Shown here piece by piece: positions 3,536-46,837 of a stretch of 64,000 nucleotides of DNA. The stretch covers positions 6,246 to 70,245 of the forward strand of contig JACDHS010000007.1 of the NCBI GenBank assembly GCA_013820875.1, given 5' to 3'. The stretch's first letter is position 1. The number at the start of each line of letters is the position of its first letter. Under the pieces are notes generated by a model. That model made no database searches, was not told the DNA's origin, and saw nothing but the letters and a program-made list of their open reading frames with translations. The translations under genes and the position numbers were made by a program. Source of the DNA: Verrucomicrobiota bacterium. Lineage in GTDB: Bacteria; Verrucomicrobiota; Verrucomicrobiia; Limisphaerales; JACDHS01.

Positions 3536-4291
3536 TCAGCTTCCCCTGTTCATCTGGCGCAGGAGGGAATACTTGAGATGCACTTCGCGGGCGCAGATCC
3601 GGGCGATGCGCCAGCCCTGGCCTCCATCGAGAAAGCCGCCTCGCAAGACGTAATAACGAAACCATTTAAACGCACCGCGCGCGTGCGGCGCGAGGAGAGT
3701 CGCGCGTTTGCCGGACTCGGACTGCATCTCTGCCCAGAGTTGCGCGTATTTCTGGCACCGCGCCCAATGATCAGCAACATCGCGAAAAGAATAATGGTGC
3801 AGGTCGCCACGAAGAGCCGTGATGGAACCGGCGATCTCAAGGCGTTCGTGAACTTTCCCGCCGCTGAAACGCGCCGTTGATTTTCGGAACAAGCGAACCA
3901 GACGATCCGGATACCAATCGCCATGCCGAATCCAACGGCCTTCATACAAAACACAACGCGGCATGCTGAACCCGGCAATCTCTCGCGCAGGTTCAATCTT
4001 TTTAAGAGCGGCAATTTCTTCCCGGAGCGTCGGTGAAAGTTCCTCATCAGCATCAATGCTGAAAACCCACTCGTTTGTGGCGAGGTGCAGCGCCAGATTC
4101 TTTTGGCCAACGTAGCCCAGCCAATCCTGATGAACGAACCGGGCGCAGAATTGCTGGGCGATGTTCTGGGTTCCATCCGTGCTGCCGGAATCGACAATCA
4201 GAATGTCATCGGCGAGATCAGCGCAACTGCGCAGGCAGCGCCCCAGGTTTTCCTCTTCATTGAGTGTGATAATGCAGAACGAAATTTTCAC
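3536..4291 (-). CDS. Family 2 glycosyltransferase (LPS core type, KdtX/WaaE-like)
   Basis: 251 aa. The N-terminus ISFCIITLNEEENLGRCLRS...ILIVDSGSTDGT and the SIDADE (DxD) motif are typical of GT2. Its start overlaps the upstream GT9 stop by 4 nt, which suggests one operon. Confidence 0.85.
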   Translation of the reverse strand: MKISFCIITLNEEENLGRCLRSCADLADDILIVDSGSTDGTQNIAQQFCARFVHQDWLGYVGQKNLALHLATNEWVFSIDADEELSPTLREEIAALKKIEPAREIAGFSMPRCVLYEGRWIRHGDWYPDRLVRLFRKSTARFSGGKVHERLEIAGSITALRGDLHHYSFRDVADHWARCQKYAQLWAEMQSESGKRATLLAPHARGAFKWFRYYVLRGGFLDGGQGWRIARICAREVHLKYSLLRQMNRGS

Positions 4292-6237: not shown

Positions 6238-6480
6238 GAAACCACAGATGGTGTGTAGGCGCAAAACGGAGCGCGGCGTAACCGCAAAGCGGTTCGTCGT
6301 TTCTATAGTTCTGATTTGTGCGAAGCATCAGCCGCAGCACGTGAGATTGTTCGAGCGGTTTGAAAATCTGAACGCCGCAATCAATGCAGTCCCCGCTGCG
6401 GCTGATCCTTCGGACACAGCCGCGCTCCGTCTCGGACCTGCTTTTTTTATCTGTGTCCATCTGTATTCATCTGTGGTTTC
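6238..6480. repeat. 243-bp nested-inverted-repeat (MITE/REP-like) element filling the GT2-msbA gap
   Basis: There are three perfect inverted-repeat pairs. GAAACCACAGATG at 6238-6250 pairs with 6468-6480. ACGGAGCGCGGC at 6266-6277 pairs with 6419-6430. ATCAGCCGCAGC at 6327-6338 pairs with 6395-6406. The right end carries three tandem ~10-nt motifs (CACAGATG type). Confidence 0.8.
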
Positions 6481-8629: not shown

Positions 8630-8972
8630 CTGATTTGCGGTCAATCCGGTCTGTCGTGAGGCGTTTTACAGCGAATATTGGTCTTCGACAGGCTGTCGTG
8701 AAGCGATTTACGGCAAATATCGGTCTACTACAGGCTGTCGTGAGGCGATTTACGGCGAATATCGGTCTACTACAGGCTGTCGAAGGACGATTTACGGCGA
8801 ATATCGGTCTACTACAGGCTGTCGTGAGACGATTTACGGCGAATATCGATCTACTACAGGCTGTCGAAGGACGATTTATGGCGAATATCGATCTACTACA
8901 GGCTGTCGAAGGACGATTTACGGCGAATATTGGTCTGCTACAGGCTGTCGTGAGGCGATTTACGGCGAATAA
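8630..8972. repeat. Tandem array A1: 42-bp unit, about 8 copies
   Basis: The anchor CTGTCG recurs at 8651, 8693, 8735, 8777, 8819, 8861, 8903 and 8945, exactly 42 bp apart. The unit is roughly CTGTCGTGAGGCGATTTACGGCGAATATCGGTCTACTACAGG, with two alternating variants (GTGAGG / GAAGGA). Confidence 0.95.
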
Positions 8973-9005
8973 TGGCTTGAACTGGCCAAATTCCTGTGTC
9001 GGGCG

Positions 9006-9740
9006 CTATTCCACCAACCCATGCTTCCGATTTTGCAGGACCGCCCATGAATAGATGGCAAAATCGGCCCAGTTATCGATGACCAGTTTCTGCAGGGTTT
9101 CCGCATCAAGCGCTGTAAAATTGTCAGCGTCAGTTTTGGGCGCGACGCGTTCCGCTTTTTGCAGCGTGATTTTCCGCGGGAGAAGTTGGTTAAGCCGTTC
9201 CACTTCCGCAGTGAACGATTCCTGCAATCCAACGAAAGCGTAATGTTCCAGGTTTTCCAGCGACTGCTTCAACGTTTGGATCGTTACATTTTGGCAGTCA
9301 TCGAAGTTGTGGCTATTAACGATGGAACGAGAGAAGTAAACGGCGAGATGATTCGGAAATGAGTGGCTCGGATCCTGCGCAATCTCCTTGAGTGAACGTT
9401 CCAGGAAAAGTGTGTGCAGGTTCTGCCGGGGCGTTCTTCGGACATGAAAATAGAACGAGACGAAGCGTGCAATCGGGTTCCGCACAAACGTCACGTAGAT
9501 TGTCGGCTGGGGAAAAAAGGTGTGGATGCCGTACCAGACTTGATGGCCATAAACCAAACGAATCTTTGCTTTGCGCTCTTCGGGCATCTGGCTCAATTCA
9601 TTACTCATTGTTTCCGAAGTATTATTGGGGCCATGAGCAAAATAAATTTCCTCGTCGCTGTAAACTTCGCGAAACGCCTTCAACAATGTAGATCCCGCCG
9701 TTTTAGGAATGTGATGAAAAATGACAACTGGCTCGCTCAT
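9006..9740 (-). CDS. Sulfotransferase family protein
   Basis: 244 aa. The N-terminal IFHHIPKTAGSTL is the PAPS 5'-phosphosulfate-binding loop of carbohydrate-type sulfotransferases. Confidence 0.75.
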   Translation of the reverse strand: MSEPVVIFHHIPKTAGSTLLKAFREVYSDEEIYFAHGPNNTSETMSNELSQMPEERKAKIRLVYGHQVWYGIHTFFPQPTIYVTFVRNPIARFVSFYFHVRRTPRQNLHTLFLERSLKEIAQDPSHSFPNHLAVYFSRSIVNSHNFDDCQNVTIQTLKQSLENLEHYAFVGLQESFTAEVERLNQLLPRKITLQKAERVAPKTDADNFTALDAETLQKLVIDNWADFAIYSWAVLQNRKHGLVE

Positions 9741-19300: not shown

Positions 19301-22027
19301 TTAAGAATTTTTTACCGGTTTTCTGTGAAGAACTGGTTTGAGATATTGGCCGGTGTAAGATTTTGCGCATCGGACAATTTCCTCCGGTGACCCTTGCGCG
19401 ATGATTTCTCCTCCTCCGCCGCCCGCTTCAGGTCCGAGATCAATCACCCAATCAGCTTCCGCGATAAGATCAAGGTTATGCTCGATGACGATGACGGAAT
19501 GTCCGGCATCCACAAGGCGTTGAATGACCTCCACCAAACGCCGCACATCGGCCATGTGCAGCCCGATTGTCGGCTCTTCCAGGATGAATAGTGCTGATTT
19601 CTCCTTCTTGATGGGCAGGCCGAGTTCCGCTTGCTGCGCCTGCGCCCTGGTTTTTAGCTTCTGGTCAGATGCTGGATTCTTCAGGCCGCTAAGCAAATGC
19701 GTGACGAGCTTGATCCGTTGCGCTTCACCGCCGCTGAGCGTCGGGCTGGTCTGGCCAAGTTTCAGATAATCAAGGCCAGTATCGCGCAACGCCTCCAGCG
19801 GACGACGAATCTTTTGAAATGCACCGAAGAACTCCAGCGCTTCCGCGATGCTGAGTTCCAGGACTTGCGCGATGTTCTTGCCCGCGAATTCGATATCGAG
19901 GGTTTCGAGGTTGAAGCGGCAACCTTCGCATACTTCACACCGCACAAAGGACGGCGGCAGGAAATTCATCTCCAGTTTGATCGTGCCGGCGCCCTGGCAT
20001 TCCGGGCAACGCCCCTGCACGCTGTTGAAAGAGAAGCGACTTGCTGAATAACCGCGCAAGCGCGCTTCCGGAAGTTGCGCGAACAGGTTGCGAATCTCGT
20101 CGAAGAAACCAACGTAAGTCGCTGGAATTGACCGAGGCGTCCGGCCAATCGGCGCCTGGTCCACTTCGTAAATGGCAGAAATCAGATCGTCCCCTTTTGT
20201 GATTTTCCCGAACTCGCGATCCCCTGATGTATCGCCTTTCAGTTTCGCTCGGAGCACCGGAAGCAGACAGTCATGAATCAACGTGCTCTTGCCCGAACCG
20301 CTCACGCCGGACACCGCCACAAACCGGTTCAACGGAATTTCTACGGTCACATTCTTAAGGTTGTGCAGTGACGCTTTATTCAAAACCAGCCGGGCAGATT
20401 TTTTTTCGACAGGACGCCGTGTGCCGCGATGCGGGAAACGCTTGTGCTCGCGCAGACACTGACCGGTGATTGAGTTTTTGTTCCGCTTCAGCTCAGACAA
20501 AGTTCCCGCTGCCATTACTTCGCCGCCATGAACGCCTGCGCCCGGCCCCAGATCGATCACGTAATCTGCGCGTCGCATCGTTTCTTCGTCATGCTCCACA
20601 ACGACGAGCGAGTTCCCCCGCTTCTTCAGGAGGTCGAGCGCGTGTAGCAGATGCTCATTGTCGCGGGCATGCAAACCGATGGTTGGCTCATCGAGGATAT
20701 AAAGGACACCGGTGAGGTTGGATCCAAGTTGTGCGGCGAGCCGAATGCGTTGCGCTTCACCACCCGACAAAGTGGTCGCACTGCGGCCGAGTTGCAAATA
20801 GCCAAGCCCGACTTCACGAAGAAATTTCAGCCGCTCATGAATCTCCGGCAAAATATCGCGCGCAATTTCCGCTTCGCGACCTTGGATTTTCAATTCAGCA
20901 AAAAATGAAATTACGTCATCCACGGCGGCGTTGCCGATGTCAACAATGGTAGGACAGGCGCTTTTAGTGGAAGGAAACAGGCGAGACGCCTGTTCTACTC
21001 TAAGGCGCACCGCACGCGCGATCGGGTTTAGGCGGGTGCCGTTGCATTCCGGGCAAAGCTCGCGTTTGCCTTCCTGCCAGCCGAACCATGATTCTTCGAT
21101 GGCATCCGCGCGCGCGCCGCGGTCCACCTCCGGCAGATAAAAAAGCTCACCAAACCCGCGACAATTTCCGCACCAGCCTTGCGAGGAATTGTAGCTAAAG
21201 TTTTTCGGGTCGAGCACTGCGAAAGAATCACCGCACCTCGGACAAGCGCGATGCGTGGAATGAACAGACGTTTTACCATCCTTGCCGAGTGCGTAAAGCG
21301 TGCCGTTACCGAGGCGCAACGTTTCATCAATCAGTTGCTGCGGAGATTTCTCCCATGCCCTGGCTCGTTTCGCGAGCACGCCAGTGACGATTTCCACATC
21401 GTGTTCCTTGAACCGATCAAGCCGAAACGGTTCGCTCGTCGAATACATTTTCCCATCGGCGCGGAGTTGTTCGTAATCGTGCTTGGCAGCCCATTGCGCC
21501 ACATCGCTGTGAAAACCTTTCCGATTTTTCACAACCGGAGCGAGCAGGGACAAGTTTCCGCGACGTTTCACTTCCTCCTGAAGTTTGCGTCCGATCTCAT
21601 CACGCGTTTGCGCTTGAACCGCCAGGTCGCATTTCGGGCAGAACTGCGTTCCGAGCCGGGCATAGAGCAGTCGCAGGAAATGATATACCTCGGTCACTGT
21701 GGCAACGGTGCTTTTGCCGCCGCCGCGGGAAACCCGTTGTTCAATGCTCACCGTCGGCGGAATGCCGGTGATGAGATCCACATCCGGGCGGGCCATTTGC
21801 TCAACGAACTGGCGGGCATAGACGTTCATGGAATCCAAAAACCGGCGTTGCCCTTCCGAGAAGAGAAGGTCAAATGCCAGCGTGCTTTTTCCCGAACCGC
21901 TCACGCCGGTAATGACGACAAACTTCCCTCGCGGAATCTGCAGGGAAAGGTTTTTCAGATTGTGTTCACGCGCGCCAATAATGGAAATGGCGTCACTGAC
22001 AGCGAACTCTGTTTTGTCGTCCAACAT
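19301..22027 (-). CDS. uvrA: UvrA-family excinuclease ABC subunit A (closer to canonical; short insertion domain)
   Basis: 908 aa with two ABC modules (GVSGSGKSTL twice, LSGGEAQR twice). Zn-finger cysteines are CPKC...CPRC, CGNC...CPEC and CPEC...CEVC. SIEQR..GGGKSTVATVTEVYHFLRLLYARLG aligns with E. coli UvrA as I recall it. Confidence 0.85.
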   Translation of the reverse strand: MLDDKTEFAVSDAISIIGAREHNLKNLSLQIPRGKFVVITGVSGSGKSTLAFDLLFSEGQRRFLDSMNVYARQFVEQMARPDVDLITGIPPTVSIEQRVSRGGGKSTVATVTEVYHFLRLLYARLGTQFCPKCDLAVQAQTRDEIGRKLQEEVKRRGNLSLLAPVVKNRKGFHSDVAQWAAKHDYEQLRADGKMYSTSEPFRLDRFKEHDVEIVTGVLAKRARAWEKSPQQLIDETLRLGNGTLYALGKDGKTSVHSTHRACPRCGDSFAVLDPKNFSYNSSQGWCGNCRGFGELFYLPEVDRGARADAIEESWFGWQEGKRELCPECNGTRLNPIARAVRLRVEQASRLFPSTKSACPTIVDIGNAAVDDVISFFAELKIQGREAEIARDILPEIHERLKFLREVGLGYLQLGRSATTLSGGEAQRIRLAAQLGSNLTGVLYILDEPTIGLHARDNEHLLHALDLLKKRGNSLVVVEHDEETMRRADYVIDLGPGAGVHGGEVMAAGTLSELKRNKNSITGQCLREHKRFPHRGTRRPVEKKSARLVLNKASLHNLKNVTVEIPLNRFVAVSGVSGSGKSTLIHDCLLPVLRAKLKGDTSGDREFGKITKGDDLISAIYEVDQAPIGRTPRSIPATYVGFFDEIRNLFAQLPEARLRGYSASRFSFNSVQGRCPECQGAGTIKLEMNFLPPSFVRCEVCEGCRFNLETLDIEFAGKNIAQVLELSIAEALEFFGAFQKIRRPLEALRDTGLDYLKLGQTSPTLSGGEAQRIKLVTHLLSGLKNPASDQKLKTRAQAQQAELGLPIKKEKSALFILEEPTIGLHMADVRRLVEVIQRLVDAGHSVIVIEHNLDLIAEADWVIDLGPEAGGGGGEIIAQGSPEEIVRCAKSYTGQYLKPVLHRKPVKNS

Positions 22028-23120: not shown

Positions 23121-26100
23121 TCAGGAAAGCACCTGGCGTAGCGCACGCCCAGTATGGCTCCCTTCCTGGAGCAACACCTCTTCCGGGGTGCCGACCGCGA
23201 CGATTTCGCCACCGCGATCCCCAGCCTCCGGCCCGAGGTCGATCAGCCAATCCGCACATTTGATGAGTTCAAGATTGTGTTCGATGACCACGACAGAATT
23301 CCCGGCTTCGACGAGTTTATGGAACGCTGCCGTGAGCACGCGAACATCGTCGAAATGCAAACCGGTTGTGGGTTCATCAAAGAAAAACATTGTTGGTTTG
23401 CCGGAGCTTTGCTGACGACCGAACTCGGCCAGGTGACTGACCAACTTTAACCGCTGACTTTCCCCGCCTGACAACGTGTTGATCGGTTGGCCCAGCCGCA
23501 GATAGCCCAGTCCAACTTCCTGCAACAGTTGCAGCGCACGAATGGCGTGTTGCGCGTGACGGCTTTGCGTGAGGCTTTGCAGAAAATGAATCACCTGGTC
23601 GGCACTCGCCTCCAGCAGATCGGCAATGTTCCATTGCACACTTTCCATTCGGGAATTTCGGAGCGACGAACCGGGCACGCTACCGTCCACCTTGATTTCG
23701 AGAATGTGCGAGCGATAACGGCGCCCGTCGCAATCCGGGCAACGAATAAAAACATCGCTGAGAAATTGCATCTCGATTTTCTCGAAGCCAGCACCGCGAC
23801 AACGCTCGCATTGGCCCTGGCTGGAATTGAAACTGAACGCACTGGCATTCAACCCACGTTGTTTGGCGACTTCTGTCTGTGCAAATATCTCGCGAATATC
23901 ATCAAAGGCCCCGATGTACACCGCCGGATTGGAACGAGGCGTCCGGCCAATCGCTGTTTGATCCACCAACAGGACGCGCCCGATGCTTTCGAAGCCGCGC
24001 AGATCCACTTCGGAATGCGGAGCGCGAAGCGCGGACTTTTCGTCGCCGTCATTCGCGGAATCATCCTCCGTCGTTTCAATCTCTGACGGAGCTTGCGCGT
24101 TTATCCTTTCTTCCAATGCAGGCAGGAGCACATCCCGCACAAGCGTGGATTTGCCCGAGCCGCTCACACCCGTGATGCAGACAAATCGGCCAAGAGGAAT
24201 TTCGACGGTGACATTACACAGGTTATGCGCCGTTGCACCGGTGATCTTTAAGGCAGGACAGGCATCCTGCCTGTCCCTCGGAGCTGATGCATCGCGAGAA
24301 ACTAAAGAGCGGTTGTCCACGTTTCTTGCGCTTCGAGCTCTTTTGCCATTCTGGGAGAGGCAGGATGCCTGTCCTGCTTTACGGCGTTCCGGCACTTCTA
24401 TCGCCTTGCGACCGCTTAAGTATTCACCCGTAAGCGAACCTTTCGCTTTAAGAATGTCACGGTAGCGTCCCTGGAAAACAATCTGTCCCCCGGTTTCGCC
24501 ATGGCCCGGGCCGAGATCAATTATCTCATCCGCAGCCCGCATCACATTCGCTTCGTGTTCAACGACCACCACGGTATTTCCGACATCGCGCAGGCGTTGC
24601 AGAATTTCAATCAGCCGATCGGTATCACGCGGATGCAATCCGACACTTGGCTCATCCAGGACAAACAACGTATTCACCAGGCCCGAACCAAGACAGGTGG
24701 TTAGGCTGACACGTTCGGTTTCGCCCCCGGAAAGCGTGCGGGTCGGTCGATCCAGGGTTAGATAACCCAGTCCGACTTCGTTCATGAACGAAAGTCGCGC
24801 CCGCACTTCATGCAATGCCAGCGTTAAAGGATCGGACGTCCTGGTGTGCTTGCGTCCAGCCGCCAGCGATTCGATAAACTGCAACGAATCGCGCAGGGAA
24901 AGCTGGTAGAAATCGGAGAGAGATAACTTCGCTGGTCGCCTTTTCCCGGAAGACTCAGAGAGGCGGGGTGTCTCTACTACTTTGTAGAGCAACGTGTCTG
25001 GTTGGAAACGCGCCCCGTGGCAATCGTCGCAGGGGCGGTAACTTCGGTAACGCGAGAGCAACACGCGCACATGCATTTTGTAGGATTTGGATTCCAGCCA
25101 GCGGAAATAACCTTTGATCCCGTACCAGGCTTTCGGCCACTGATGATTGTCATCCATGCCGTAGTTCGGTTCGCCGTTGATGACCCAGTCCTGGAATTCG
25201 TTCGGCAGATCGCGAAACGGAACATTGGTGGGGATATGACGTTTGCGACAGAATTTCATCATGTCATCCTGACACTCGGCGCTTTGACCGGTTTGCCACG
25301 GCTTCACCACTCCGCCCGCTAATGTTTTCGAACGATCCGGTATCGCCAGGTTGTAATCAATGGTGATGACCCGTCCGAACCCGCGACAGGTCGGACAAGC
25401 GCCGAGCGGATGATTGAAACTGAACAAAGCGGGAACCGGCTCGCGATAATCAATGTCGCACTCCGCACAATGCAAGCGGTTGGAAAATGTTTGCGTGCGG
25501 GTTCCAGCTTTCGAGTGGCCGGCCTCCGAAAAATGTAAAGTGAGTTTCCCTTTTCCGAAATGATAGGCCTGTTCGCACGCTTCAATAAAACGATGCCTAT
25601 TGGTCGGCGCGATTTTAATACGATCCTGAACGACCGTCAGCACAACAGCTTTCAATGCGGAAAGTTGAGCCGTCGCCTCTTCCAGACGTTTGATTTCACC
25701 CTCCACCAGCAACCGTTGGTAACCTTGCTTTGCCACCAGGTTAAGCGTTTCGGTGAGCGGCAGCTTTTCGGACAGCGGCAGTTTGAACGTGATAAGAATT
25801 TCGGAATGCGCGGCGGAGTTTGGCGCTCCGCCCTGGCTCACCGTTTCCCAAATCTTCTGTGGCGAATCTTTTGTCACAGGCCTGCCGCATTTTCGGCAAT
25901 GCAATTGTGCCAGGTGCGCCCAGAGCACTTTTGCGTAATCGCAAATCTCCGTCATCGTTCCGACAGTGGAGCGAGTCGTTTTGACGGCGTTCCGCTGTTC
26001 GATGGCGATGGCCGGTGGAATTCCCTCAATGCTATCGACCTGTGGCTTGTCCATCCGATCGAAAAACTGGCGGGTGTAAGGCGAGAACGTTTCAATGTAG

Positions 26101-26294
26101 CGACGTTGCCCCTCCGCAAACAAGACATCGAACGCCAGCGAACTCTTCCCTGAACCGCTCAAACCAGTGATCACCACCAGTTTTCCAATCGGCAGGTCGA
26201 GATCGAAATTCTTGAGATTATTATGCCGCACACCACGGAGGCGAATAAACTTTGGCGCGGACTTCTTTTGCATGCGGGCGAAACCTAATTGCAA
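23121..26294 (-). CDS. Divergent UvrA-family ABC ATPase (UvrA paralogue) with extra insertions
   Basis: 1057 aa. It contains GLSGSGKSSLAFDVLFAEGQRRY, LSGGETERVSL, GVSGSGKSTL and LSGGESQRLKL, with Zn-finger Cys pairs. It diverges from the neighbouring UvrA in the region between Zn fingers. It also carries an in-frame palindromic element in the inter-module linker and an acidic insert (ETTEDDSANDGDEKS). Confidence 0.85.
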   Translation of the reverse strand: MQLGFARMQKKSAPKFIRLRGVRHNNLKNFDLDLPIGKLVVITGLSGSGKSSLAFDVLFAEGQRRYIETFSPYTRQFFDRMDKPQVDSIEGIPPAIAIEQRNAVKTTRSTVGTMTEICDYAKVLWAHLAQLHCRKCGRPVTKDSPQKIWETVSQGGAPNSAAHSEILITFKLPLSEKLPLTETLNLVAKQGYQRLLVEGEIKRLEEATAQLSALKAVVLTVVQDRIKIAPTNRHRFIEACEQAYHFGKGKLTLHFSEAGHSKAGTRTQTFSNRLHCAECDIDYREPVPALFSFNHPLGACPTCRGFGRVITIDYNLAIPDRSKTLAGGVVKPWQTGQSAECQDDMMKFCRKRHIPTNVPFRDLPNEFQDWVINGEPNYGMDDNHQWPKAWYGIKGYFRWLESKSYKMHVRVLLSRYRSYRPCDDCHGARFQPDTLLYKVVETPRLSESSGKRRPAKLSLSDFYQLSLRDSLQFIESLAAGRKHTRTSDPLTLALHEVRARLSFMNEVGLGYLTLDRPTRTLSGGETERVSLTTCLGSGLVNTLFVLDEPSVGLHPRDTDRLIEILQRLRDVGNTVVVVEHEANVMRAADEIIDLGPGHGETGGQIVFQGRYRDILKAKGSLTGEYLSGRKAIEVPERRKAGQASCLSQNGKRARSARNVDNRSLVSRDASAPRDRQDACPALKITGATAHNLCNVTVEIPLGRFVCITGVSGSGKSTLVRDVLLPALEERINAQAPSEIETTEDDSANDGDEKSALRAPHSEVDLRGFESIGRVLLVDQTAIGRTPRSNPAVYIGAFDDIREIFAQTEVAKQRGLNASAFSFNSSQGQCERCRGAGFEKIEMQFLSDVFIRCPDCDGRRYRSHILEIKVDGSVPGSSLRNSRMESVQWNIADLLEASADQVIHFLQSLTQSRHAQHAIRALQLLQEVGLGYLRLGQPINTLSGGESQRLKLVSHLAEFGRQQSSGKPTMFFFDEPTTGLHFDDVRVLTAAFHKLVEAGNSVVVIEHNLELIKCADWLIDLGPEAGDRGGEIVAVGTPEEVLLQEGSHTGRALRQVLS
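24253..24377. repeat. GGACAGGCATCCTGCCTGTCC-type palindromic element inside the UvrA-paralogue CDS
   Basis: GCAGGACAGGCATCCTGCC (24254-24272) is the perfect reverse complement of GGCAGGATGCCTGTCCTGC (24359-24377). The 25-nt GGACAGGCATCCTGCCTGTCCCTCG at 24257-24281 is identical to 47360-47384 in glnS. Confidence 0.85.
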
Positions 26295-27346: not shown

Positions 27347-28318
27347 ATGGCTTACTCTTGCATAGGCATGCTGCATAATTATTCAGACGAACAGTTGCGA
27401 CTTGCAGCACGCCTTTATTATTTGGATGGACTGCCGCAGGCGGAGGTCGCCAGGTTTACCAACGTTTCTCAGGCAAAAGTTTCCCGGTTGCTCTCCCTGG
27501 CGCGGGAGCGCGGCATTGTGCGGATCACGGTGGAGGATTACCAACCACGCAACGTTTCCCTGGAGAAAGAACTCAAAAAAGGGTTTTGCCTCTCCACGGT
27601 GGCGGTCATCAAAACGGCGGAAGACTTGTCTCTCGAAGACCTGCGCCGCGCTGTCGGCCATTTCGCCGGATCATTTATTGATTCAATGATTGAGGCGCAT
27701 AGCACAGTCACTATTTCCGGCGGCAGAACGATGCGCGAACTGGTCCAATCGCTGCCTCAAGCCCCAGCCAGGCAGCTAACGGTGGTGCAAGCAATGGGCA
27801 GCGTGGATTCCAGTGTTAGTCCTGTGGATTCTCTCGAACTTGGTCGCACTCTCGCTCACCGCTTCGGCGGCACCTTTCTGACGATCAACACGCCCGCGTT
27901 TGTTCCTGACAAAAAAACCCGCGACGCCTTTCTCCAGCTCGAACAAATCCAGAATGTGCGAAGGCGTCTCAGTAAGGTGGACGTAGCGCTCGTGGGGATC
28001 GGCACCTTGCAGAATTCTGTCTTTGCAGAGCGCGGCGTGCTCGGACGCAAAGATGTCGCTGACCTGAAAGCCGCAGGGGCAGTCGGCGAGATGTGCGGAC
28101 GTTTCTTCGATGCCAACGGCAGGGAATGCGACACTCAATGGCGCGACCGCGTCATCAGCATCGAACTGGAGCAACTTAGAAAAATTCCGCAGGTGGTCGG
28201 GGTCATTGCCGGAAGCGATCGGTGCGATGCCATTCGCGCTGCGGTGAAAGGAAAGCTTTTGAAGTCGCTGGTGATTGATGAAGCGGGAGCGCGGGCTTTA
28301 CTTGGAAAAACAATTTAA
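27347..28318 (+). CDS. SorC/DeoR-family sugar-phosphate-binding transcriptional regulator
   Basis: 323 aa. LAARLYYLDGLPQAEVARFTNVSQAKVSRLLSLARERGIVRI is the SorC-type HTH, followed by a sugar-binding domain (GIGT, VGEMCGRFFD). Confidence 0.85.
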   Translation: MAYSCIGMLHNYSDEQLRLAARLYYLDGLPQAEVARFTNVSQAKVSRLLSLARERGIVRITVEDYQPRNVSLEKELKKGFCLSTVAVIKTAEDLSLEDLRRAVGHFAGSFIDSMIEAHSTVTISGGRTMRELVQSLPQAPARQLTVVQAMGSVDSSVSPVDSLELGRTLAHRFGGTFLTINTPAFVPDKKTRDAFLQLEQIQNVRRRLSKVDVALVGIGTLQNSVFAERGVLGRKDVADLKAAGAVGEMCGRFFDANGRECDTQWRDRVISIELEQLRKIPQVVGVIAGSDRCDAIRAAVKGKLLKSLVIDEAGARALLGKTI

Positions 28319-28346
28319 CCACGGATGAACACGGATAGACACCGAT
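28317..28346. repeat. Single arm of a triple-motif element (CACGGATG type)
   Basis: ACCACGGATGAACACGGATAGACACCGATG is three 10-nt repeats filling the 26-nt gap between the regulator stop and the GDPD start. Confidence 0.6.
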
Positions 28347-29304
28347 GAAAAATATGAAAATTCAATTTCTCACCTTGCTTCTTGGCCTGACTTCGCTGCT
28401 GGCTGTCGCTGAAGAAAAGGCAGTTTCGGCAAAAGCGAAAGCCAACTGGAACGTGACCAAACACATTCCCTTCGAACAATTCATCCTGCAAAGCCACCGC
28501 GGGGCTGGAGTGCTTGCGCCGGAGAACACCATCGAAGCATTTGAACTGGGCTGGAAGCTTGGGACCTATCCGGAGGCTGACATTCGCACCACCAAGGATG
28601 GGGTGATCGTCGCGTTTCACGATGCGAACTTTAGTCGTGTCGTCAAAGGAGCCAGCGAGGAATTGAAAAAGAAAGGGGTTCAGGATCTAACTTTCGCCGA
28701 ATTAGGCAAAATCGATGTCGGTTCCTGGCATGGCGACGATTTTGAAGGGCGTCGCGTCTCAAGAATTTCCGAGATATTCGAGCTCATGCGTGGCAAACCG
28801 GACCGCCATCTTTACCTCGACATCAAAAATGTGGACCTGCGCAAGCTTGCCGATGAAGCCAAAGCCGGTGGCGTGGCAAAGCAGGTTATCCTCGCCAGCC
28901 GCCACCCGGAAATCATTCGGGAATGGAAATCGTACCTCCCCGAATCTGACACACTCCTCTGGATGAGCGGCGATGAAAAGACCCGTCGCGAACGGCTCGA
29001 GAAATTGAAGCAGGAAAACTTCGACGGCATCACCCAGGTGCAAATCCACATTCACCTGAACAAAAACAAGAACAGCGCCGATCCGTTCACACCCTCGAAT
29101 GCGTTCATCATCGAAACCGGCGAAGAACTGCGCCGGCGCAACATTCTTTACCAGGCGCTGCCTTATACGGACGACCTGACTGTTTACGCCAAGCTGCTTG
29201 ATCTGGGACTTGGCTCATTTTCCACCGATTATCCCGATGCGACCATGCGCGAGATAAAGGCTTATTACGAAAAACACGGCAGGAAAATGCAGCAGGGAAA
29301 ATAG
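28345..29304 (+). CDS. Secreted glycerophosphodiester phosphodiesterase family protein
   Basis: 319 aa with a signal peptide (MKNMKIQFLTLLLGLTSLLAVA). QSHRGAG.LAPENT..AF and EADIRTTKDGVIVAFHD are GDPD catalytic motifs. Confidence 0.85.
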   Translation: MKNMKIQFLTLLLGLTSLLAVAEEKAVSAKAKANWNVTKHIPFEQFILQSHRGAGVLAPENTIEAFELGWKLGTYPEADIRTTKDGVIVAFHDANFSRVVKGASEELKKKGVQDLTFAELGKIDVGSWHGDDFEGRRVSRISEIFELMRGKPDRHLYLDIKNVDLRKLADEAKAGGVAKQVILASRHPEIIREWKSYLPESDTLLWMSGDEKTRRERLEKLKQENFDGITQVQIHIHLNKNKNSADPFTPSNAFIIETGEELRRRNILYQALPYTDDLTVYAKLLDLGLGSFSTDYPDATMREIKAYYEKHGRKMQQGK

Positions 29305-34312: not shown

Positions 34313-35314
34313 TCACGGCAAATCAATCATGATCTCCCGCTGGGGGGCGCCGCCGGGGAAGTTGGCCCAGAAGATTTCACGGAATCCTGGTGGGTTGTAT
34401 TCCCAATGCCACGGTTCGTTCTGGTAGGGATACCAGCCGAATTCATCGGCGCGCAGAACCAGCCACTTATGCACGGGCGATTCGCGCATGTGTACCATTG
34501 CTGGCATGGAACCCGTGGAGCCTTCTTTGGTCTGGAAATCATTGCGATGACTCATCTTGAAGTCGATGGCGAGGCCGAGCGAATGTGAGGAGAAACTCGC
34601 GACGGCGTTCGGATTGCCCGCCCGTGCCGCGTTCCTGGCTGCCGTTTCCGGATAGCGGTGCGCTGAATTGATAATCAAGTCCACGCCGTCAAGCTTCGCC
34701 GCCTCGCGCATGCGGACGAATGATTCCAATGCATGAGGGTTGAGCTTCCAGCGTTCCTGGCCGGGCACAGGCGTCCATTTGTTGGTGATAAGACCCCAAA
34801 CCGCATCATTTACCTCGGCTCTGAGGACAACCGCATTGCGTGTACTGTTGGCACGTCGCTCGGGCAGAACCAGATCGAGGGTATCAACCATCACGTCAGC
34901 AAACGATTCATTGGGGCCTTTAGCGCCACCGGGGAAATCGGCCTCATGCCAGGCGAAGCTACGGAAATGGTGGCTTAGTTCCGGACCGAGAATGTCGAGT
35001 CCGGAGGTGTTCGGATCATGAATGAATTTCAGCTCGATGGCACGGAGCAATGCGAGCCTGGATTTGCGGTTGTCTTTGGCCAATGCCCGTTTGAAAGCGG
35101 CGTTAATGGTAGCGTCCTGCTCACGGTCTTTGAGCGTTGCCCAGATGTAATTCGGGTGGAGGCGAGTGGTGCGATCTTCGGCAAGTTGCGCCGTCGCTTC
35201 GATTAAGCCCATGGCAGACGGTGTCTTCGTTGCATTATGCCGCGAAGTCGCGCAACCGCTAAAAACCATCACGCAGCCTAGGAACAAAGGCAGGAGCCGG
35301 ACGAGTGTTTTCAT
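34313..35314 (-). CDS. Peptidase M15 (VanY/D-Ala-D-Ala carboxypeptidase-like) lipoprotein
   Basis: ATG at 35314 gives MKTLVRLLPLFLGCVMVFSGC (lipobox). SAHRYPE, SSHSLGLAIDF and EPWHWEY form the H..D..H zinc motif set of M15. Confidence 0.75.
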   Translation of the reverse strand: MKTLVRLLPLFLGCVMVFSGCATSRHNATKTPSAMGLIEATAQLAEDRTTRLHPNYIWATLKDREQDATINAAFKRALAKDNRKSRLALLRAIELKFIHDPNTSGLDILGPELSHHFRSFAWHEADFPGGAKGPNESFADVMVDTLDLVLPERRANSTRNAVVLRAEVNDAVWGLITNKWTPVPGQERWKLNPHALESFVRMREAAKLDGVDLIINSAHRYPETAARNAARAGNPNAVASFSSHSLGLAIDFKMSHRNDFQTKEGSTGSMPAMVHMRESPVHKWLVLRADEFGWYPYQNEPWHWEYNPPGFREIFWANFPGGAPQREIMIDLP

Positions 35315-35458
35315 CGGGTGATACTCACAAGGACAGTTCTGGGCGTCAACTGGAGAGCGTATCCACTGATCGGACGGGCGATTCCTGCGATTTTTCAGTG
35401 GAATTGACGTAGGCGGGTGCAAATTGACCGGCCCCGGTGGACGTTCGCTGAGGTCCAA

Positions 35459-35800
35459 AAACACGTATTTTTCCTGTTTTGTGAGTCACGGAGGTCGTGA
35501 AAAACGTATTTCGCGTGTTTTGTGAGTCACAGAAGTCGTAAAAAATATATTTCACGTGTTTTGTGAGTCACGGAAGTGGTGAAAAATATATTTCGCGTGA
35601 TTTGTGAGTCACGGAAGTGGCGAAAAATATATTTCACGTGATTTGTGAGTCGCGGAAGTGGTGAAAAATATATTTCACGTGATTTGTGAGTCACGGAAGT
35701 GGTGAAAAATATATTTCACGTGATTTGTGAGTCACGGAAGTGGTGAAAAATATATTTCACGTGATTTGTGAGTCACAAATGTCGTGAGAAACGTATTGGT
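35459..35800. repeat. Tandem array A2: 41-bp unit, about 8 copies
   Basis: GTGAGTC recurs at 35481, 35522, 35563, 35604, 35645, 35686, 35727 and 35768, exactly 41 bp apart. The consensus is GTGAGTCACGGAAGTGGTGAAAAATATATTTCACGTGATTT. Central copies are near identical and edge copies are degenerate. Confidence 0.95.
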
Positions 35801-36088: not shown

Positions 36089-37948
36089 ATGAACGCCACT
36101 GCTGAAAACATTGAAGTCTCGCCTGAAACGTTGTCCCAGGTTGCAAATCAACTCCGGATCCACTCCATTGCCGCCACGACCGCTTCAGGCAGCGGACACC
36201 CCACTTCCTGCGCCTCTGCCGCCGATCTGGTGGCTGCCCTTTTCTTCGGGCACATGCGCTACGACCCGAAAACTCCGCGCTATTACAATAACGACCGTTT
36301 CATTCTTTCCAAAGGTCACGCGGCACCGTTGCTTTACGCTGCATGGGCCGAAACCGGTTTGTTTCCGACGTCCGAACTGTTGAAACTTCGGGAATGGGGC
36401 CACGATCTCGAAGGTCATCCCACACCGCGTCTGCCATTCGTTGATGTCGCCAGCGGATCGCTCGGACAAGGCCTCAGTGTCGGCGTTGGCATGGCATTGA
36501 GTGCGCGCCAGGATAAACTCGATTTTCGCACCTACGTTTTGCTCGGCGACGGCGAATGCGCCGAAGGTTCTGTCTGGGAAGCCGCCCTGCTCGGTGGACA
36601 CTACAAATTAAACAATCTCGTCGCCCTGGTTGACGTCAATCGCCTCGGTCAAAGCCAGGCAACTTCTGTCGGTCACAATGTCGAAGTTTACGCGAAACGT
36701 TTCGAAGCATTCGGCTGGCGCACGGAAATCATTGACGGCCACGACATGGAAGAAATCCTCGAAGTGCTCGCCGCCGCCGGTCTGGGGGATCAACCGCTCG
36801 CCATCATTGCCAAAACCTACAAAGGCCATGGCATCGAAACGATCAGCGACAAAGATGCATGGCACGGCAAAGCGCTTTCCAAGGATGAAGCCCAGGTCGC
36901 CATCGCCGCTCTGCAACCGAAAGCTCGCGGTGGCGAAGGGATCGAGATTCCCAAGCCACACCAATTGCCTGAGCCAAACGTTGTCGGTCCCGCCAGCTAT
37001 CCCGCGATTAATTACAACATGGGCGATAAGATCGCCACGCGTGAAGCCTACGGTGCTGCCCTCGTCCGAGTGGGCGAAGCCGATCCGCGCATCGTCGCGA
37101 TGGATGGTGATACAAAGAATTCCACGTTTGCCGAAAAGTTTGCGAAGAAATTCCCCGAGCGGTTCACGGAATGTTTCATTGCCGAACAAAACATGGTCGG
37201 TGTCGCTGTTGGATTCAGTGCGCTGCGCAAAGTGCCGTTCGCTTCAACATTCGCCGCGTTCTTCACCCGTGCGCATGACCAGATCCGCATGGCTGGCATC
37301 TCCCTCGCAAATCTCAATCTCGTCGGCTCGCACGTCGGCGTCAGCATCGGCGAAGATGGCGCTTCCCAGATGGCGCTCGAAGATCTCGGCATGATGCGCG
37401 CCATTCCGGACAGCGTCGTGCTCTATCCGTCCGATGCCGTTTCCACCGAGAAGTTGGTGGAACTCATGATCGGCCACAAAGGGATCTGCTACCTGCGCAC
37501 CTCCCGCCCGAAGACACCCGTCATCTACAAGAACGACGAACAATTCCCAATCGGCGGCGCGAAAGTTTTGAAGCAGGCCGACGGTGATAAAGTCACCATC
37601 GTCACCGCTGGCGTCACCCTGTTCGAAGCGTTGAAAGCGGCCGATGCACTCGCCAAGGATGGCATTGGAGTGACGGTGATTGACGCCTACAGCATCAAGC
37701 CGCTCGCCAAAGATCTGATCAAGGCTGCCGCCCAGAAGACGAACAACGTCATCCTGACCGTTGAAGATCATTATCCAGAAGGCGGCATCGGTGACACCGT
37801 CGCTGGCGAACTCAGCGCCGACGGCATCAAAGTGCATAAGATGGCGGTCCTCGAGTTGCCTCGTTCCGGAAAACCGGAAGAGTTGCTCGGCAAATTCGGC
37901 ATCGACTTCGAAGCCATCATCAAGAAAGTCAAAACTCTGGCGTCGTAA
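36089..37948 (+). CDS. tkt: Transketolase
   Basis: ATG at 36089 gives 619 aa. It contains SGSGHPTSCASAADL, ILSKGHAAP.LY, the TPP motif GDGECAEGSVWEA, and the pyrimidine-binding and C-terminal domains. The track start at 35975 only adds low-complexity sequence. Confidence 0.9.
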   Translation: MNATAENIEVSPETLSQVANQLRIHSIAATTASGSGHPTSCASAADLVAALFFGHMRYDPKTPRYYNNDRFILSKGHAAPLLYAAWAETGLFPTSELLKLREWGHDLEGHPTPRLPFVDVASGSLGQGLSVGVGMALSARQDKLDFRTYVLLGDGECAEGSVWEAALLGGHYKLNNLVALVDVNRLGQSQATSVGHNVEVYAKRFEAFGWRTEIIDGHDMEEILEVLAAAGLGDQPLAIIAKTYKGHGIETISDKDAWHGKALSKDEAQVAIAALQPKARGGEGIEIPKPHQLPEPNVVGPASYPAINYNMGDKIATREAYGAALVRVGEADPRIVAMDGDTKNSTFAEKFAKKFPERFTECFIAEQNMVGVAVGFSALRKVPFASTFAAFFTRAHDQIRMAGISLANLNLVGSHVGVSIGEDGASQMALEDLGMMRAIPDSVVLYPSDAVSTEKLVELMIGHKGICYLRTSRPKTPVIYKNDEQFPIGGAKVLKQADGDKVTIVTAGVTLFEALKAADALAKDGIGVTVIDAYSIKPLAKDLIKAAAQKTNNVILTVEDHYPEGGIGDTVAGELSADGIKVHKMAVLELPRSGKPEELLGKFGIDFEAIIKKVKTLAS

Positions 37949-38071: not shown

Positions 38072-38848
38072 TCAGAACTTCAGGTTCCAATCGTCCCTTC
38101 TATATTTCTCATCTGCAAGGCTGCGATGGTCTGGAATCTCGGAGAGGAGTTGGTGGGCACCCCATACTTCGCGGAGAGCGGCTTTGATTCGTTCAGCCGG
38201 CAGGTTGAGGTTTGTGATAAACGCTTCGTGCGGCCGGTTATGGCGGTAATCCGGTTCTTTGGAAGGCATTTGCAGGAGTTTTGCGATCAACGGGAGATCG
38301 AAATTGAGCAGAAAGGTGCCGTGGAATACAAGGAATTGACGTTTGCGACGTTGAGCGTTGCCGGAGAATTTCAAATTGCTGAGAGCAAGATCGGTGTGGC
38401 CGCGCACAACGGGTGGGGTGATGGAGTGTTGGAGTGTTGGAGTATTGGGACTGTCGGTTTCCACGACTCCATTACTCCAATACTCCATTACTCCCTCAAT
38501 CGCCTTTCTCTGCCGTTCCATGACAAACTCGTTGGTCTTCGGAATGGTTTCCACCTGTGGATTGCCTTCGATTTGCAGGACGAGGTTGTAATTCAGGCAC
38601 CCCGGCCCTTGCAGCACTGTTCCGCCACCGCTGCAGCGGCGTAGTATGGGGACTTTCGCTGTTTCGCAGGCGAGGCGATTTACCTCCAGCTCCACCTTGT
38701 TGGCGTAACCGACGACCACGAAATATTCGGGGGATTCCCAGAAACGGAGCGTTTCTTCCCCGTGGCCGGATTCGCACCAGTCGAGCAAAGCTTCGTCCAT
38801 GGCAAGATTCTCAGCTGGAGTTGGGAGGGATAGATCAAGAAGCTTCAT
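38072..38848 (-). CDS. Lipoate-protein ligase / octanoyltransferase family (BPL/LPL catalytic domain) with an in-frame repeat insertion
   Basis: 258 aa. It contains RR.SGGGTV.QGPG.LNY and KFSGNAQRR. It is divergent from the pyruvate dehydrogenase operon, whose E2 subunit needs lipoylation. Confidence 0.8.
   Translation of the reverse strand: MKLLDLSLPTPAENLAMDEALLDWCESGHGEETLRFWESPEYFVVVGYANKVELEVNRLACETAKVPILRRCSGGGTVLQGPGCLNYNLVLQIEGNPQVETIPKTNEFVMERQRKAIEGVMEYWSNGVVETDSPNTPTLQHSITPPVVRGHTDLALSNLKFSGNAQRRKRQFLVFHGTFLLNFDLPLIAKLLQMPSKEPDYRHNRPHEAFITNLNLPAERIKAALREVWGAHQLLSEIPDHRSLADEKYRRDDWNLKF
38417..38494. repeat. GGAGTATTGGAGT-type palindromic element inside the lplA-like CDS
   Basis: GGAGTGTTGGAGTGTTGGAGTATTGGGA faces TCCATTACTCCAATACTCCATTACTCC across an approximately 18-nt loop. 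It encodes ...EYWSNGVVETDSPNTPTLQHSITP.... Confidence 0.85.
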
Positions 38849-41717: not shown

Positions 41718-41744
41718 TGAAACCCCGGTTTGAGACCAAACGGA

Positions 41745-41815
41745 GCATTGGAGCAATGGAGTGCTGGATTATTGCGCTTATTCCATTTTTCCATTACTCC
41801 ATTACCCCACGTTTT
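41745..41815. repeat. GGAGCAATGGAGT-type palindromic element in the aceE-aceF spacer
   Basis: TTGGAGCAATGGAGTGCTGGATTATTG faces TTATTCCATTTTTCCATTACTCCATTACC. This is the same family as 38417-38494 and the single arm CACTCCAATACTCCAATGCC at about 43128-43150. Confidence 0.75.
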
Positions 41816-41819
41816 TAAT

Positions 41820-43127
41820 ATGGACTTCAGATTACCAACTCTTGGCGAAGGCGCTGATTCCGGCACCGTCGTCAATATCCTCGTCAACGAAGGCGATACC
41901 ATTACCAAAGGCCAGACGGTCATCGAACTGGAAACCGGCAAAGCAGTGACGCCGATTCCTTCAGCCGTCGCCGGGCAGATCACCAAGCTGCTCGTCAAAG
42001 AAGGTCAAAAACTTTCCGTTGGCGCGCCCATCCTTTCCGTATCCGGTGATGCTGCGGGATCGGATGAAGCCCCTGCTGCCGCTGCTCCGAAGAGAGCGGG
42101 GGGCAAACCTGCGGCGAAGAAAGTTTCCAAACCAGAACCAGAGGAAGAAGAAACGGAAGAAGCAGAATCCGAAGAGGATTTTGAATATTCAGGCGATCAA
42201 CCTCCGCCAGCCTCTCCCTCTTTGCGCCGCCTGGCTCAAGACCTTGGCATTAATCTCCGCAAAGTCCGCGGGAGCGAAGGTGGCGGGCGCATTGTTCTCA
42301 CCGATCTCAAAGCCTATATCGCCAATCTCCAGGCGCTCGCGAAAAAAGCACAGGCTCCTGCCGCTGCAGCGCCGGGTGCGCAAGCCAAGCCTGTTGCAGC
42401 GCCGGTTGATTTCTCACGTTTCGGTTCCATTTACAAACGTCCAATGACCCCGTTGCGGAAAGTTATTTCGCAACGCATGGCCGAAAACTGGAATGCAATT
42501 CCGCACGTCACCCAGTTCGATAACATCGACCTGACGAACCTCATGGCGATGCGCAAAAAATACGTGGAAGCCTACGAGAAGAAGGGTGCCAAACTGACCG
42601 TCACTGCACTTTCCTTAAAGGCAGTGGTTAACGCGCTGAAGAAACATCCGATCTTCAACTCGAGCCTCGACGAGGTGGCTGAAGAAATCGTTTTCAAGGA
42701 ATATTTCCACATCGGCATCGCCGTGGATACTGACCAGGGACTTATCGTTCCGGTGATTCGCAATGCGGATAAGAAATCGATTTTCGAACTGGCTAAAGAA
42801 TTGGCTGAGCTCGCGGAGAAAACACGGGACCGCAAAGTCTCGATGGAAGATCTGCAGGGCGGCACCTTTACGATTTCGAACCAGGGCTCATTCGGCGGCG
42901 CTCATTTCACTCCGATTGTTAACCGACCGGAAGTCGCCATTCTCGGAATGGGCAAAGGCGCGATGCAACCGGTGGTGACAAAGGACGGCAAGATTGAAGC
43001 GCACAGTGTGTTGCCGGTCGGACTGTCCTACGATCATCGGGTGATCGATGGTGGCAGTGCCGCCCGATTCATGGTGGATCTCGTCAATGAGTTCCAAAAC
43101 TTCAACGAAGCAGATGTGAAGATTTAA
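41820..43127 (+). CDS. aceF: Dihydrolipoamide acetyltransferase (PDH E2), single lipoyl domain
   Basis: ATG at 41820 gives MDFRLPTLGEGADSGTVVNILV...ELETGKAV (lipoyl-Lys motif). It has an Ala/Pro/Glu linker, the subunit-binding domain (SPSLRRLAQDLGINL) and the catalytic site DHRVIDG. Confidence 0.9.
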   Translation: MDFRLPTLGEGADSGTVVNILVNEGDTITKGQTVIELETGKAVTPIPSAVAGQITKLLVKEGQKLSVGAPILSVSGDAAGSDEAPAAAAPKRAGGKPAAKKVSKPEPEEEETEEAESEEDFEYSGDQPPPASPSLRRLAQDLGINLRKVRGSEGGGRIVLTDLKAYIANLQALAKKAQAPAAAAPGAQAKPVAAPVDFSRFGSIYKRPMTPLRKVISQRMAENWNAIPHVTQFDNIDLTNLMAMRKKYVEAYEKKGAKLTVTALSLKAVVNALKKHPIFNSSLDEVAEEIVFKEYFHIGIAVDTDQGLIVPVIRNADKKSIFELAKELAELAEKTRDRKVSMEDLQGGTFTISNQGSFGGAHFTPIVNRPEVAILGMGKGAMQPVVTKDGKIEAHSVLPVGLSYDHRVIDGGSAARFMVDLVNEFQNFNEADVKI

Positions 43128-43166
43128 TGCCAGCACTCCAATACTCCAATGCCCCCCTCTCCTAAC

Positions 43167-45945: not shown

Positions 45946-46139
45946 TGCTTTCCGTTTCGTACCGTCAGGTGTGCGGTGAATGGTAGGACTGATCGCATCG
46001 AATCGCGTTCTTTTCAGTCACAAAGCATATTATGGGATTTATCGATTCAATAGGAATTCGCGTGGTTTGCGGACAGGTGCGAAAGCTTCATCCGGGTGAA
46101 TTGTTGAAAAATAAGGGTTTTTTCACTTAGGTCGCCAGA

Positions 46140-46400
46140 AACGTGGGCGACACGGTCTCATGGTTAACTTTCTTTTCCGGAAACGCCACCGAGACGGTCT
46201 CATGGCCACCTTTTTTTCCGGAAACGCCGCCGAGACGGTCTCACGACCACCTTTCTTTTCCGGAAACGCCGTCGAGACGGTCTCATGGCTACCTATTTTT
46301 TCCGGGAACGTCGCCGAGACGGTCTCATGGTTAACTTTTTTTTCCGGAAACGTCGTCGAAACGGTCTCACGACGACTTTTTTTTCATATCAAAACGGTTC
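46140..46400. repeat. Tandem array A3: 41-42-bp unit, about 6 copies
   Basis: ACGGTCTC recurs at 46152, 46194, 46235, 46277, 46319 and 46361. The unit is roughly GAGACGGTCTCATGGCCACCTTTTTTTCCGGAAACGCCGCC. It contains the palindromes GAGAC-G-GTCTC and TTTCCGGAAA plus a T tract. Confidence 0.9.
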
Positions 46401-46507: not shown

Positions 46508-46837
46508 GGAACCACGAATGTACACCAATGAACACTAATCCTAAAAACCGCAGTTTAACCGCTAATCTGCGCTAATAGTCGCTAATGGAAAAGCGGTTAC
46601 GTGAAAACAAAGGCTTCACCCCAACAGGTAGTTGGCTTTTTCAAGCGGCATTCTTCGCAATCCCCTCTGATTAGCGGTCATTAGCGTAGATTAGCGGTAT
46701 TGAACTGCCTCGGATTTAGGCTAATTAGGATGGCCAGAATTCCGCATCATAGTCGGCCCACCACATGGTGAATTGAATCATACAACAACAGGGTGTAATC
46801 AAACTCGGTTCCTTATTGGTGTTTATTCGTGGTCACG
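46508..46837. repeat. Composite 330-bp element with nested inverted repeats made of triple short motifs
   Basis: The outer arm GGAACCACGAATGTACACCAATGAACACTAAT (46508-46539) faces GGTTCCTTATTGGTGTTTATTCGTGGTCAC (46808-46837). The inner arm AACCGCTAATCTGCGCTAATAGTCGCTAATGG (46558-46588) faces CTGATTAGCGGTCATTAGCGTAGATTAGCGGTAT (46667-46700). Confidence 0.8.

Follow-up and report, generated by a model that had tools for sequence, protein, structure and literature searches.

The element described here, array A2, is a tandem array of 41-bp units in a 64,000-nucleotide stretch of a Verrucomicrobiota genome (order Limisphaerales; assembly GCA_013820875.1, contig JACDHS010000007.1). This whole stretch is called the window, and all positions are given within it. 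A2 lies in a 774-bp spacer between two divergent genes. On its left, on the minus strand, is a gene of the VanY/M15 D-Ala-D-Ala carboxypeptidase family (34313–35314; Pfam), whose product is identical to NCBI protein MBA4146994.1 (333 aa), from a Verrucomicrobia metagenome-assembled genome (MAG) in which the contig is 77,220 bp long. On its right, on the plus strand, is the transketolase gene tkt (36089–37948; Pfam and public gene calls). The start of the peptidase gene is about 136 bp from the array and that of tkt 289 bp. The original prediction, made from the letters of the sequence, had placed the array between these two gene starts, in a divergent promoter region, and Pfam matches and public gene calls both support this placement. 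The wider region has the content of a housekeeping part of a chromosome, with genes for UbiA, a GNAT protein, LipB, the E1, E2 and E3 components of pyruvate dehydrogenase (PDH), an MqnA-like protein and GlnS, as well as sugar and lipopolysaccharide genes. No partition, replication, transposase, integrase or cas genes are found among the annotated genes of the region, and neither Rfam (at gathering thresholds) nor a tRNA scan gave a match in the window.

Tandem Repeats Finder (TRF) reports A2 at 35478–35776, with a period of 41 bp, 7.3 copies, 93% matches, 0% indels and a score of 507, and a repeat search recovers it in seven registers spaced by exactly 41 bp. With its decayed edge copies the array covers approximately 35450–35800 and comprises about 8.5 head-to-tail units, with no strand assigned, of consensus TTTGTGAGTCACGGAAGTGGTGAAAAATATATTTCACGTGA (TRF, repeat search and unit table). 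The heptamer GTGAGTC, which had been said to recur every 41 bp from 35481 to 35768, is indeed found eight times in this interval (at 35481, 35522, 35563, 35604, 35645, 35686, 35727 and 35768), and the rest of the 64 kb contains a single further copy. All units are direct and abut without spacers. The array is crossed by short spurious open reading frames (ORFs) only, and a coding frame through it is impossible because 41 is not a multiple of 3. Tandem, non-coding and differing by a whole unit between assemblies (see below), A2 is a bacterial intergenic minisatellite, or variable-number tandem repeat (VNTR).

The units are not equally conserved along the array. Its homogenised core (35560–35764) consists of five units with 0–1 differences from the consensus; those at 35683 and 35724 are identical, and that at 35642 is one base off both. 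The outer units, at 35478, 35519 and 35765, have accumulated more changes than the centre. The left edge (35450–35559) is made of a half-decayed copy (approximately 35450–35477) and two units of an older variant, which carry GTCGTGAAAAACGTATT or GTCGTAAAAAATATATT where the centre has GTGGTGAAAAATATATT, and the right edge (35765–35800) is the last unit, truncated and diverged (TTTGTGAGTCACAAATGTCGTGAGAAACGTATT...). The older variant, GTCGTGA.AAACGTATT, is common to both edges, since it reappears in the right-edge unit. The unit table thus bears out the near-identical centre and decayed edges that had been noticed before, and an older variant shared by the edges around a uniform centre is the pattern expected if the middle of the array keeps duplicating.

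Within the unit, the most regular feature is a 9-bp core palindrome, GTGA-G-TCAC, which recurs every 41 bp over 35481–35776 in seven perfect copies and one copy reading GTGAGTCGC; the TTTGTGAGTC positions are invariant across all eight units. Three short palindromes had been attributed to each unit, and this is correct for the central copies only: TCACGTGA is present in four of the eight units, GTGA-G-TCAC in seven of the eight, and a perfect GTGAAA-N6-TTTCAC, as read off the unit table, in three. Nevertheless, the unit as a whole is a quasi-palindrome. The consensus and its reverse complement agree at 26 of 41 positions, a score reached by none of 300 shuffles, and the two dyad centres of the unit, the G of GTGA-G-TCAC and the middle of AAAAATATATTT, are about 20.5 bp apart.

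The original prediction considered A2 by itself. The window also holds two sister arrays, equal in period and unrelated in sequence, and they change the question that is asked of A2. The first, A1 (8651–8971; TRF), has 7.6 copies of a 42-bp unit with an invariant ACAG-G-CTGT palindrome, and begins 145 bp upstream of the start of an ABC-transporter gene (8506, minus strand). The second, A3 (46138–46385; TRF), alternates 42- and 41-bp units, giving a period of 83 bp × 3.0 and hence about six units; its palindromes are GAGAC-G-GTCTC and TTTCCGGAAA, and it is located between the mqnA-like gene and glnS. Like A2, both are intergenic, and each of the three arrays lies upstream of at least one gene start. 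An ORF that spans A1 (8635–9054) stays open because 42 is a multiple of 3; having no Pfam match, it was treated as spurious. Homology of the three units was ruled out, as the best rotated local alignments on both strands score no better than shuffles in any pair. Moreover, no leader or flank is common to the arrays, and the rest of the 64 kb is free of solo units. What they have in common is therefore a period of about 41.5 bp and not a sequence. This period corresponds to a twist of 3.90–4.05 turns per unit in two models, i.e. to four turns of the helix. The three arrays lie within 38 kb, in about 77 kb of the organism's sequence, and the approximately 13 kb outside the window hold no further array. 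In all three, the least variable part of the unit is the core palindrome (TTTGTGAGTC in A2, ACAGGCTGTCG in A1 and ACGGTCTCA in A3). These cores are odd-centred, with a single central base, which suits recognition of the duplex by a dimer and makes a hairpin loop impossible.

A second assembly, GCA_020064125.1, covers the same region on contig JAITZQ014411080.1 (77,138 bp), with flanks that are 99.8–99.9% identical and 10–19 mismatches per 9–16 kb stretch where the two differ. In this assembly A2 has seven copies of GTGAGTC instead of eight, the absent unit being one of the two identical central units (35683/35724); A1 has exactly one unit fewer, namely the distinct unit at 8777; and A3 is the same in both. 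Together, the 41 and 42 bp so removed agree within 1 bp with the 82-bp difference in size between the two contigs. The unequal exchange that had been proposed from the variation among units thereby gains direct support, in that a whole-unit change is seen between near-identical assemblies, although slippage would also produce it. The one-unit change in A2 is as replication slippage or unequal exchange would produce, and changes of this kind keep the centre homogeneous while the edges decay. For A2 itself the difference could be either a real allele or an assembly collapse, the missing unit being one of two identical copies, whereas the unit lost from A1 has a sequence of its own and is thus hard to explain as a collapse of identical copies. 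Both assemblies were built from short reads, which leaves the true copy numbers uncertain. An independent build, the Logan contigs of run SRR11719875, matches the window at 100% identity: one contig starts in the last full unit of A2, one ends 2.5 units into A1 and one spans the whole of A3. Since these contigs reproduce parts of the arrays, the arrays are present in the reads and are not the product of one assembler. The Logan contig on the left of A2 reaches only to 35310, which is still 4 bp within the peptidase ORF and about 140 bp short of the array.

Phased A-tracts in the unit had been proposed to curve the DNA. DNA paths were computed with the Bolshoy–Trifonov and De Santis dinucleotide wedge tables, entered by hand, with which a phased-A6 control curved strongly as expected. 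Curvature was expressed as the ratio of end-to-end distance to contour length per 330-bp segment, a lower ratio meaning a more curved path. With the Trifonov table the ratios are 0.61 for A2, 0.37 for A3 and 0.79 for A1, against a window mean of 0.91; with the De Santis table they are 0.44, 0.61 and 0.81, respectively, against 0.94. Ranked among the segments of the 64 kb, A2 falls at a fraction of 0.001–0.009, A3 at 0.003–0.005 and A1 at 0.03–0.05, and in both models the eight most curved segments are all at A2 or A3. The predicted curvature of A2 is hence high, in the top 0.1–1% of the 64 kb with both wedge models, but it is not attributable to the AAAAATATATTT tract, because shuffled units behave similarly. 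When the units are shuffled and the period is kept, 10–12% of the trials for A2, and 10–51% over the arrays, give a curvature equal to or above that of the real units, and random repeated units curve only at periods of 31–32, 41–43 and 52–53 bp. In these models, then, the predicted curvature is caused by the four-turn period and not by the A-tract, and the shuffled-unit control gives no evidence that the A-tract was selected.

The distribution of A2 was followed in 38 loci encoding relatives of the peptidase (26–82% identity; about 597 kb in total). The original prediction had tied its proposal to conservation of the array at this locus in relatives, and on this point it is not borne out: in none of the 38 loci is there a comparable array, the sole item of that period being a 2.0-copy 42-bp duplication, and neither tkt nor the GNAT gene adjoins the peptidase gene in any of them. 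The best homologues of the peptidase in GTDB species representatives come from MAGs of Limisphaerales and other Verrucomicrobiota, with at most 80% identity over the full length. In the closest relative found, whose peptidase is 84% identical, the gene is again followed by another neighbour; the contig, of 1.7 kb, begins within the 5′ end of the gene and hence lacks the upstream region. A2 is thus restricted to one species-level lineage. For the sister arrays, a search of metagenome contigs of the JGI with the A3 pattern returned a single hit, which is due to chance and is no array. Scans of viral contigs for the core palindromes of A1, A2 and A3 at the right spacing gave unrelated arrays only, with periods of 45 or 16 bp or formed by coding repeats. 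One such contig, IMG/VR UViG_2597490226_000001, carries at 3980–4120 a 45-bp × ~3.5 array rich in GTGAC/GTCAC half-sites, including GTGAGTCAC, inside a 365-aa ORF. This ORF matches, below threshold (E 0.008), the N-terminal domain of a phage replisome organiser, and the arrangement looks like origin iterons embedded in an initiator gene.

The reading that we favour, tentatively and at somewhat less than an even chance, is that A2, lying between the divergent promoters of the peptidase gene and tkt, is an upstream element of an architectural, operator-like kind. The equal period of the three arrays is what points to a constraint of DNA geometry. A quasi-palindromic unit that spans four helix turns, with two dyad centres about 20.5 bp apart, places all GTGA-G-TCAC cores on one face of the helix, so that in the computed geometry the small bends contributed by each unit add coherently. 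A2 would then either offer a dimeric DNA-binding or nucleoid protein a lattice of dyad sites along one side, or be no more than bent DNA. Gain or loss of a unit would alter the amount of this scaffold and leave the helical phase between its two sides unchanged. The same logic would apply to A1 and A3, which share the period and not the sequence. A number of observations weigh against this reading. The analysis yielded no evidence that A2 has a function. The arrays are no more curved than shuffled units of the same period, hence the content of the units shows no selection for bending. Neither A2 nor its gene junction is conserved among the 38 relatives, and A2 has no match in plasmid and phage records (BLAST), nor its degenerate unit pattern in the JGI metagenome contigs. 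Its palindromes occur nowhere else in the window, and being confined to the array they give no sign of a regulon; likewise, no regulator gene adjoins A1, A2 or A3 among the annotated genes. The invariance of the core is not statistically secure: all of about 12 variable positions fall outside the 10-bp block, for a P of about 0.02 calculated by hand and uncorrected for the choice of block. The one-unit differences are possibly assembly choices and not alleles, especially in A2. Finally, three arrays are a small sample, and their shared period could come from common descent or chance.

The main rival is a minisatellite that has no function, in which a quasi-palindromic 41-bp segment was duplicated once, expanded by slippage and tolerated as harmless in a 774-bp spacer. 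This is nearly as likely as an architectural role. An unconserved, lineage-restricted array whose copy number differs between near-identical assemblies, with decayed edges and a homogenised centre as is typical of neutral arrays, with a curvature not above that of shuffled units and with no cognate genes nearby, is consistent with it. The period asks more of this explanation, since the same value for three unrelated units in 77 kb would seem unlikely if periods are drawn broadly. It could stem from an old dispersed element of 41–42 bp whose copies were homogenised array by array until all similarity was gone; yet the solo units or shared flanks by which such a parent would be recognised are missing. 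It could also result from a filter, expansions that upset the helical phase in promoter regions having been removed, or from chance. The core palindromes vary less than the rest of each unit, and this does not favour a function-free array either. An assembly artefact, in which a spurious loop of a de Bruijn graph would have produced A2, is hardly credible. Short-read assemblies do break at or near the arrays, and copy number differs between them; however, point changes between units and decay at the edges are not what an artefact yields, two assemblies of different strains agree on all units but one, and the Logan contigs reproduce array edges and the complete A3 exactly.

Three further explanations give A2 a more specific task than an architectural element would have. 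As an RNA, transcribed from the plus strand either separately or within a long tkt leader, it would bind several CsrA-type dimers and act as a sponge or as a regulated leader. The Rsm/CsrA consensus is A/U-CANGGANG-U/A (PMC6849547), and the central units carry a perfect match to it, UCACGGAAGU; five of the nine plus-strand consensus matches (WCANGGANGW) in the window fall in A2, one per unit, and the motif, as read from the sequence, can sit in a GUCAC-GGAA-GUGGU hairpin. Through G–U pairs the plus strand folds better (−143 kcal/mol, z −10) than the minus strand (−90 kcal/mol, z −8), and some A1 units have UCG-AAGGA-CGA on the plus strand. Nevertheless, the match was found post hoc, after comparison with many known motifs, and its repetition counts as one independent event. 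The fold is strong because neighbouring quasi-palindromic units pair with each other, and it does not display GGA in loops. Besides, no promoter or terminator was found for a plus-strand RNA, Rfam gave no match, the edge units of A2 lack GGA, the GGA of A1 is on the strand antisense to the genes on either side, the folding of A1 is no better than that of shuffles and A3 is devoid of the motif. An RNA role is therefore improbable. Two-unit folds have z-scores of −4.5 and −4.3 for A2, −2.8 and −3.0 for A3, and −0.4 and +0.3 for A1, and RNA structure was rejected as a unifying feature of the arrays since A1 is at the level of shuffles. It is also quite improbable that A2 stacks up promoters for the peptidase gene in tandem, with each unit offering GTGACT-16 nt-TATATT on the minus strand and copy number setting the number of starts towards 35314. 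The six minus-strand promoter-like matches are all in A2 and in register, compared with 0.9 expected in shuffles; they count, however, as a single event that recurs, the agreement is weak (9 of 12 positions, with a poor −35 hexamer) with a consensus that may not be that of this phylum, and A1 and A3 have no such matches. A centromere-like or iteron-like array of sites, as in sopC of F or in the origins of phages and plasmids, is very improbable. In the sopC site of the F plasmid, SopB binds a 16-bp inverted repeat in each of 12 direct 43-bp repeats (PMC3177203), and A2 shares this architecture, in which tandem units about four turns long each contain an inverted repeat. The unrelated 45-bp arrays with GTGAGTCAC on viral contigs, one of them inside the ORF with the sub-threshold replisome-organiser match, speak for it as well, and so does TTTCACGTGA, which equals the central 10 bp of the parS consensus. 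Against it are the lack of par, sop and rep genes among the annotated genes of the window, the chromosomal housekeeping context, the lack of parS within three mismatches in the window, the lack of similarity to plasmid or phage records, and the presence of three different arrays in 38 kb, unlike the layout of a centromere or an origin. Context thus largely refutes it.

Known site classes were compared with the arrays in the same way and rejected. The consensus of parS is TGTTNCACGTGAAACA, and the best 16-mer of the arrays matches it at 11 of 16 positions (hand count); with no match within three mismatches in the window, a chromosomal parS is not present there. For a sopC-type centromere the unit architecture is present; neighbours of the sopA/sopB type are not, their place being taken by peptidase, GNAT, UbiA, tkt, lipB and PDH genes. 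Origin iterons were dismissed for want of a rep or dnaA gene in the window, and a CRISPR array because no spacers separate the units and no cas domains occur among the annotated genes. Repetitive extragenic palindromes (REPs) and the bacterial interspersed mosaic elements (BIMEs) that they form do not apply, since there are no dispersed or solo units in the 64 kb and all units are direct. Comparison by eye with the sites of CRP, MatP, SlmA, Noc, KorB, LexA and AP-1 gave half-site resemblance only, and a sigma-54 promoter near tkt, also sought by eye, was rejected because the GG-N10-GC spacing is wrong.

Taken alone, A2 is an ordinary VNTR that had not been annotated; it can serve to tell strains apart, and its presence explains why assemblies of this organism from short reads are broken at these loci. 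The coincidence of period is the only part that might lead to something new. A wider proposal is that the three arrays represent an undescribed class in this Verrucomicrobiota lineage, made of intergenic tandem arrays that are diverse in sequence, locked at a period of four turns (about 41.5 bp) and each built around its own odd-centred palindrome. Such arrays would organise the local architecture of the chromosome or of promoters, either as protein lattices with one face or as scaffolds of bent DNA, and would be tuned by gain and loss of units. This proposal is unlikely as it stands. If true, the whole genome would hold many such arrays, with a sharp peak in period. Should the four-turn period hold genome-wide, what is selected or generated in the arrays would be the geometry of the DNA rather than its sequence, and promoter-region architecture or nucleoid organisation would become open to tests in an uncultured phylum that has been little studied; otherwise A2 is a routine minisatellite.

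Other repeats were noticed in the same region. Inside the lipB-like ORF (38072–38848, minus strand), at 38410–38496, there is a hairpin-like element of about 85 bp with arms of 8-bp repeats, (TGGAGTRT)x4 followed by (AYTACTCC)x4. The element keeps the frame of this lipoyl ligase/transferase gene, to which it adds about 30 residues (EGVMEYWSNGVVETDSPNTPTLQHSITPPV), the Pfam match extending over 205 residues for 178 profile positions, and it resembles the in-frame palindromic insertions of Rickettsia (Rickettsia palindromic elements, RPE). A similar palindrome of 8-mer repeats, (GGAGCAWT)x3 then (TTAYTCCA)x4, is found at 41742–41812, between the stop of PDH E1 and the start of E2 (ATG at 41822), and a trace of two ACTCCAAT copies at 43135–43150, between PDH E2 and E3. 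These similarities suggest that the 8-mer-repeat palindromes are a small family of dispersed elements. Triplets of 10-bp direct repeats (CACGGATGAA-like, preceded by AACCAC) occur at three intergenic sites: 28320–28349, 46513–46539 and 6449–6475. The first of these directly follows a SorC-type regulator gene (27347–28318), ahead of a GDPD gene, and from this position it may be an operator of that regulator. Upstream of glnS (start at 46906, public gene call), three copies of CGCTAAT with 10-bp spacing (approximately 46556–46585) and three of its reverse complement ATTAGCG (approximately 46671–46698) form an inverted pair about 90 bp apart, with an operator-like layout; one Logan contig ends exactly at the first CGCTAAT triplet. 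Elsewhere, two large paralogues of UvrA-like ABC ATPases are encoded on the minus strand at 19301–22027 and 23121–26294, about 1 kb apart, with a BON-domain gene between them.

Among known systems, the REPs of enterobacteria occur as hundreds of scattered copies, with alternating orientation inside BIMEs. They resemble A2 as clustered extragenic imperfect palindromes of about 35–40 bp, but the units of A2 are direct and each array sequence is confined to a single locus. With the sponge RNAs CsrB and RsmZ, A2 has in common several perfect copies of the Rsm/CsrA consensus on one strand; unlike them, it has no promoter or terminator, no Rfam match and no GGA in predicted loops, and its sister arrays lack the motif. 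Curved promoter elements with phased A-tracts are similar in their position upstream of promoters, in an A/T tract repeated in helical phase and in high predicted curvature. They differ in having a tract at each turn, whereas A2 has one per four turns and its period alone explains the curvature. The closest known architecture is that of sopC, with tandem units of about four turns that each contain an inverted repeat, a protein site in sopC and a putative one in A2. A2, in contrast, has no sopA/sopB or parA/parB nearby, is set in a chromosome, belongs to a set of three different sequences and has palindromes of only 9–11 bp. Intergenic VNTRs are exemplified by the mycobacterial interspersed repetitive unit (MIRU) loci of Mycobacterium tuberculosis and by the 40-bp direct repeat units (dru) of the staphylococcal cassette chromosome SCCmec. 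A2 is like both in its non-coding, head-to-tail units of tens of bp, in whole-unit changes between close strains, and in a homogenised centre with diverged edges. MIRUs, however, form one homologous dispersed family, whereas the present arrays have no solo units or shared flanks. What sets the arrays apart from VNTRs in general is that three of them lie on one 77-kb contig, with unrelated units, odd-centred palindromes and the same four-turn period.

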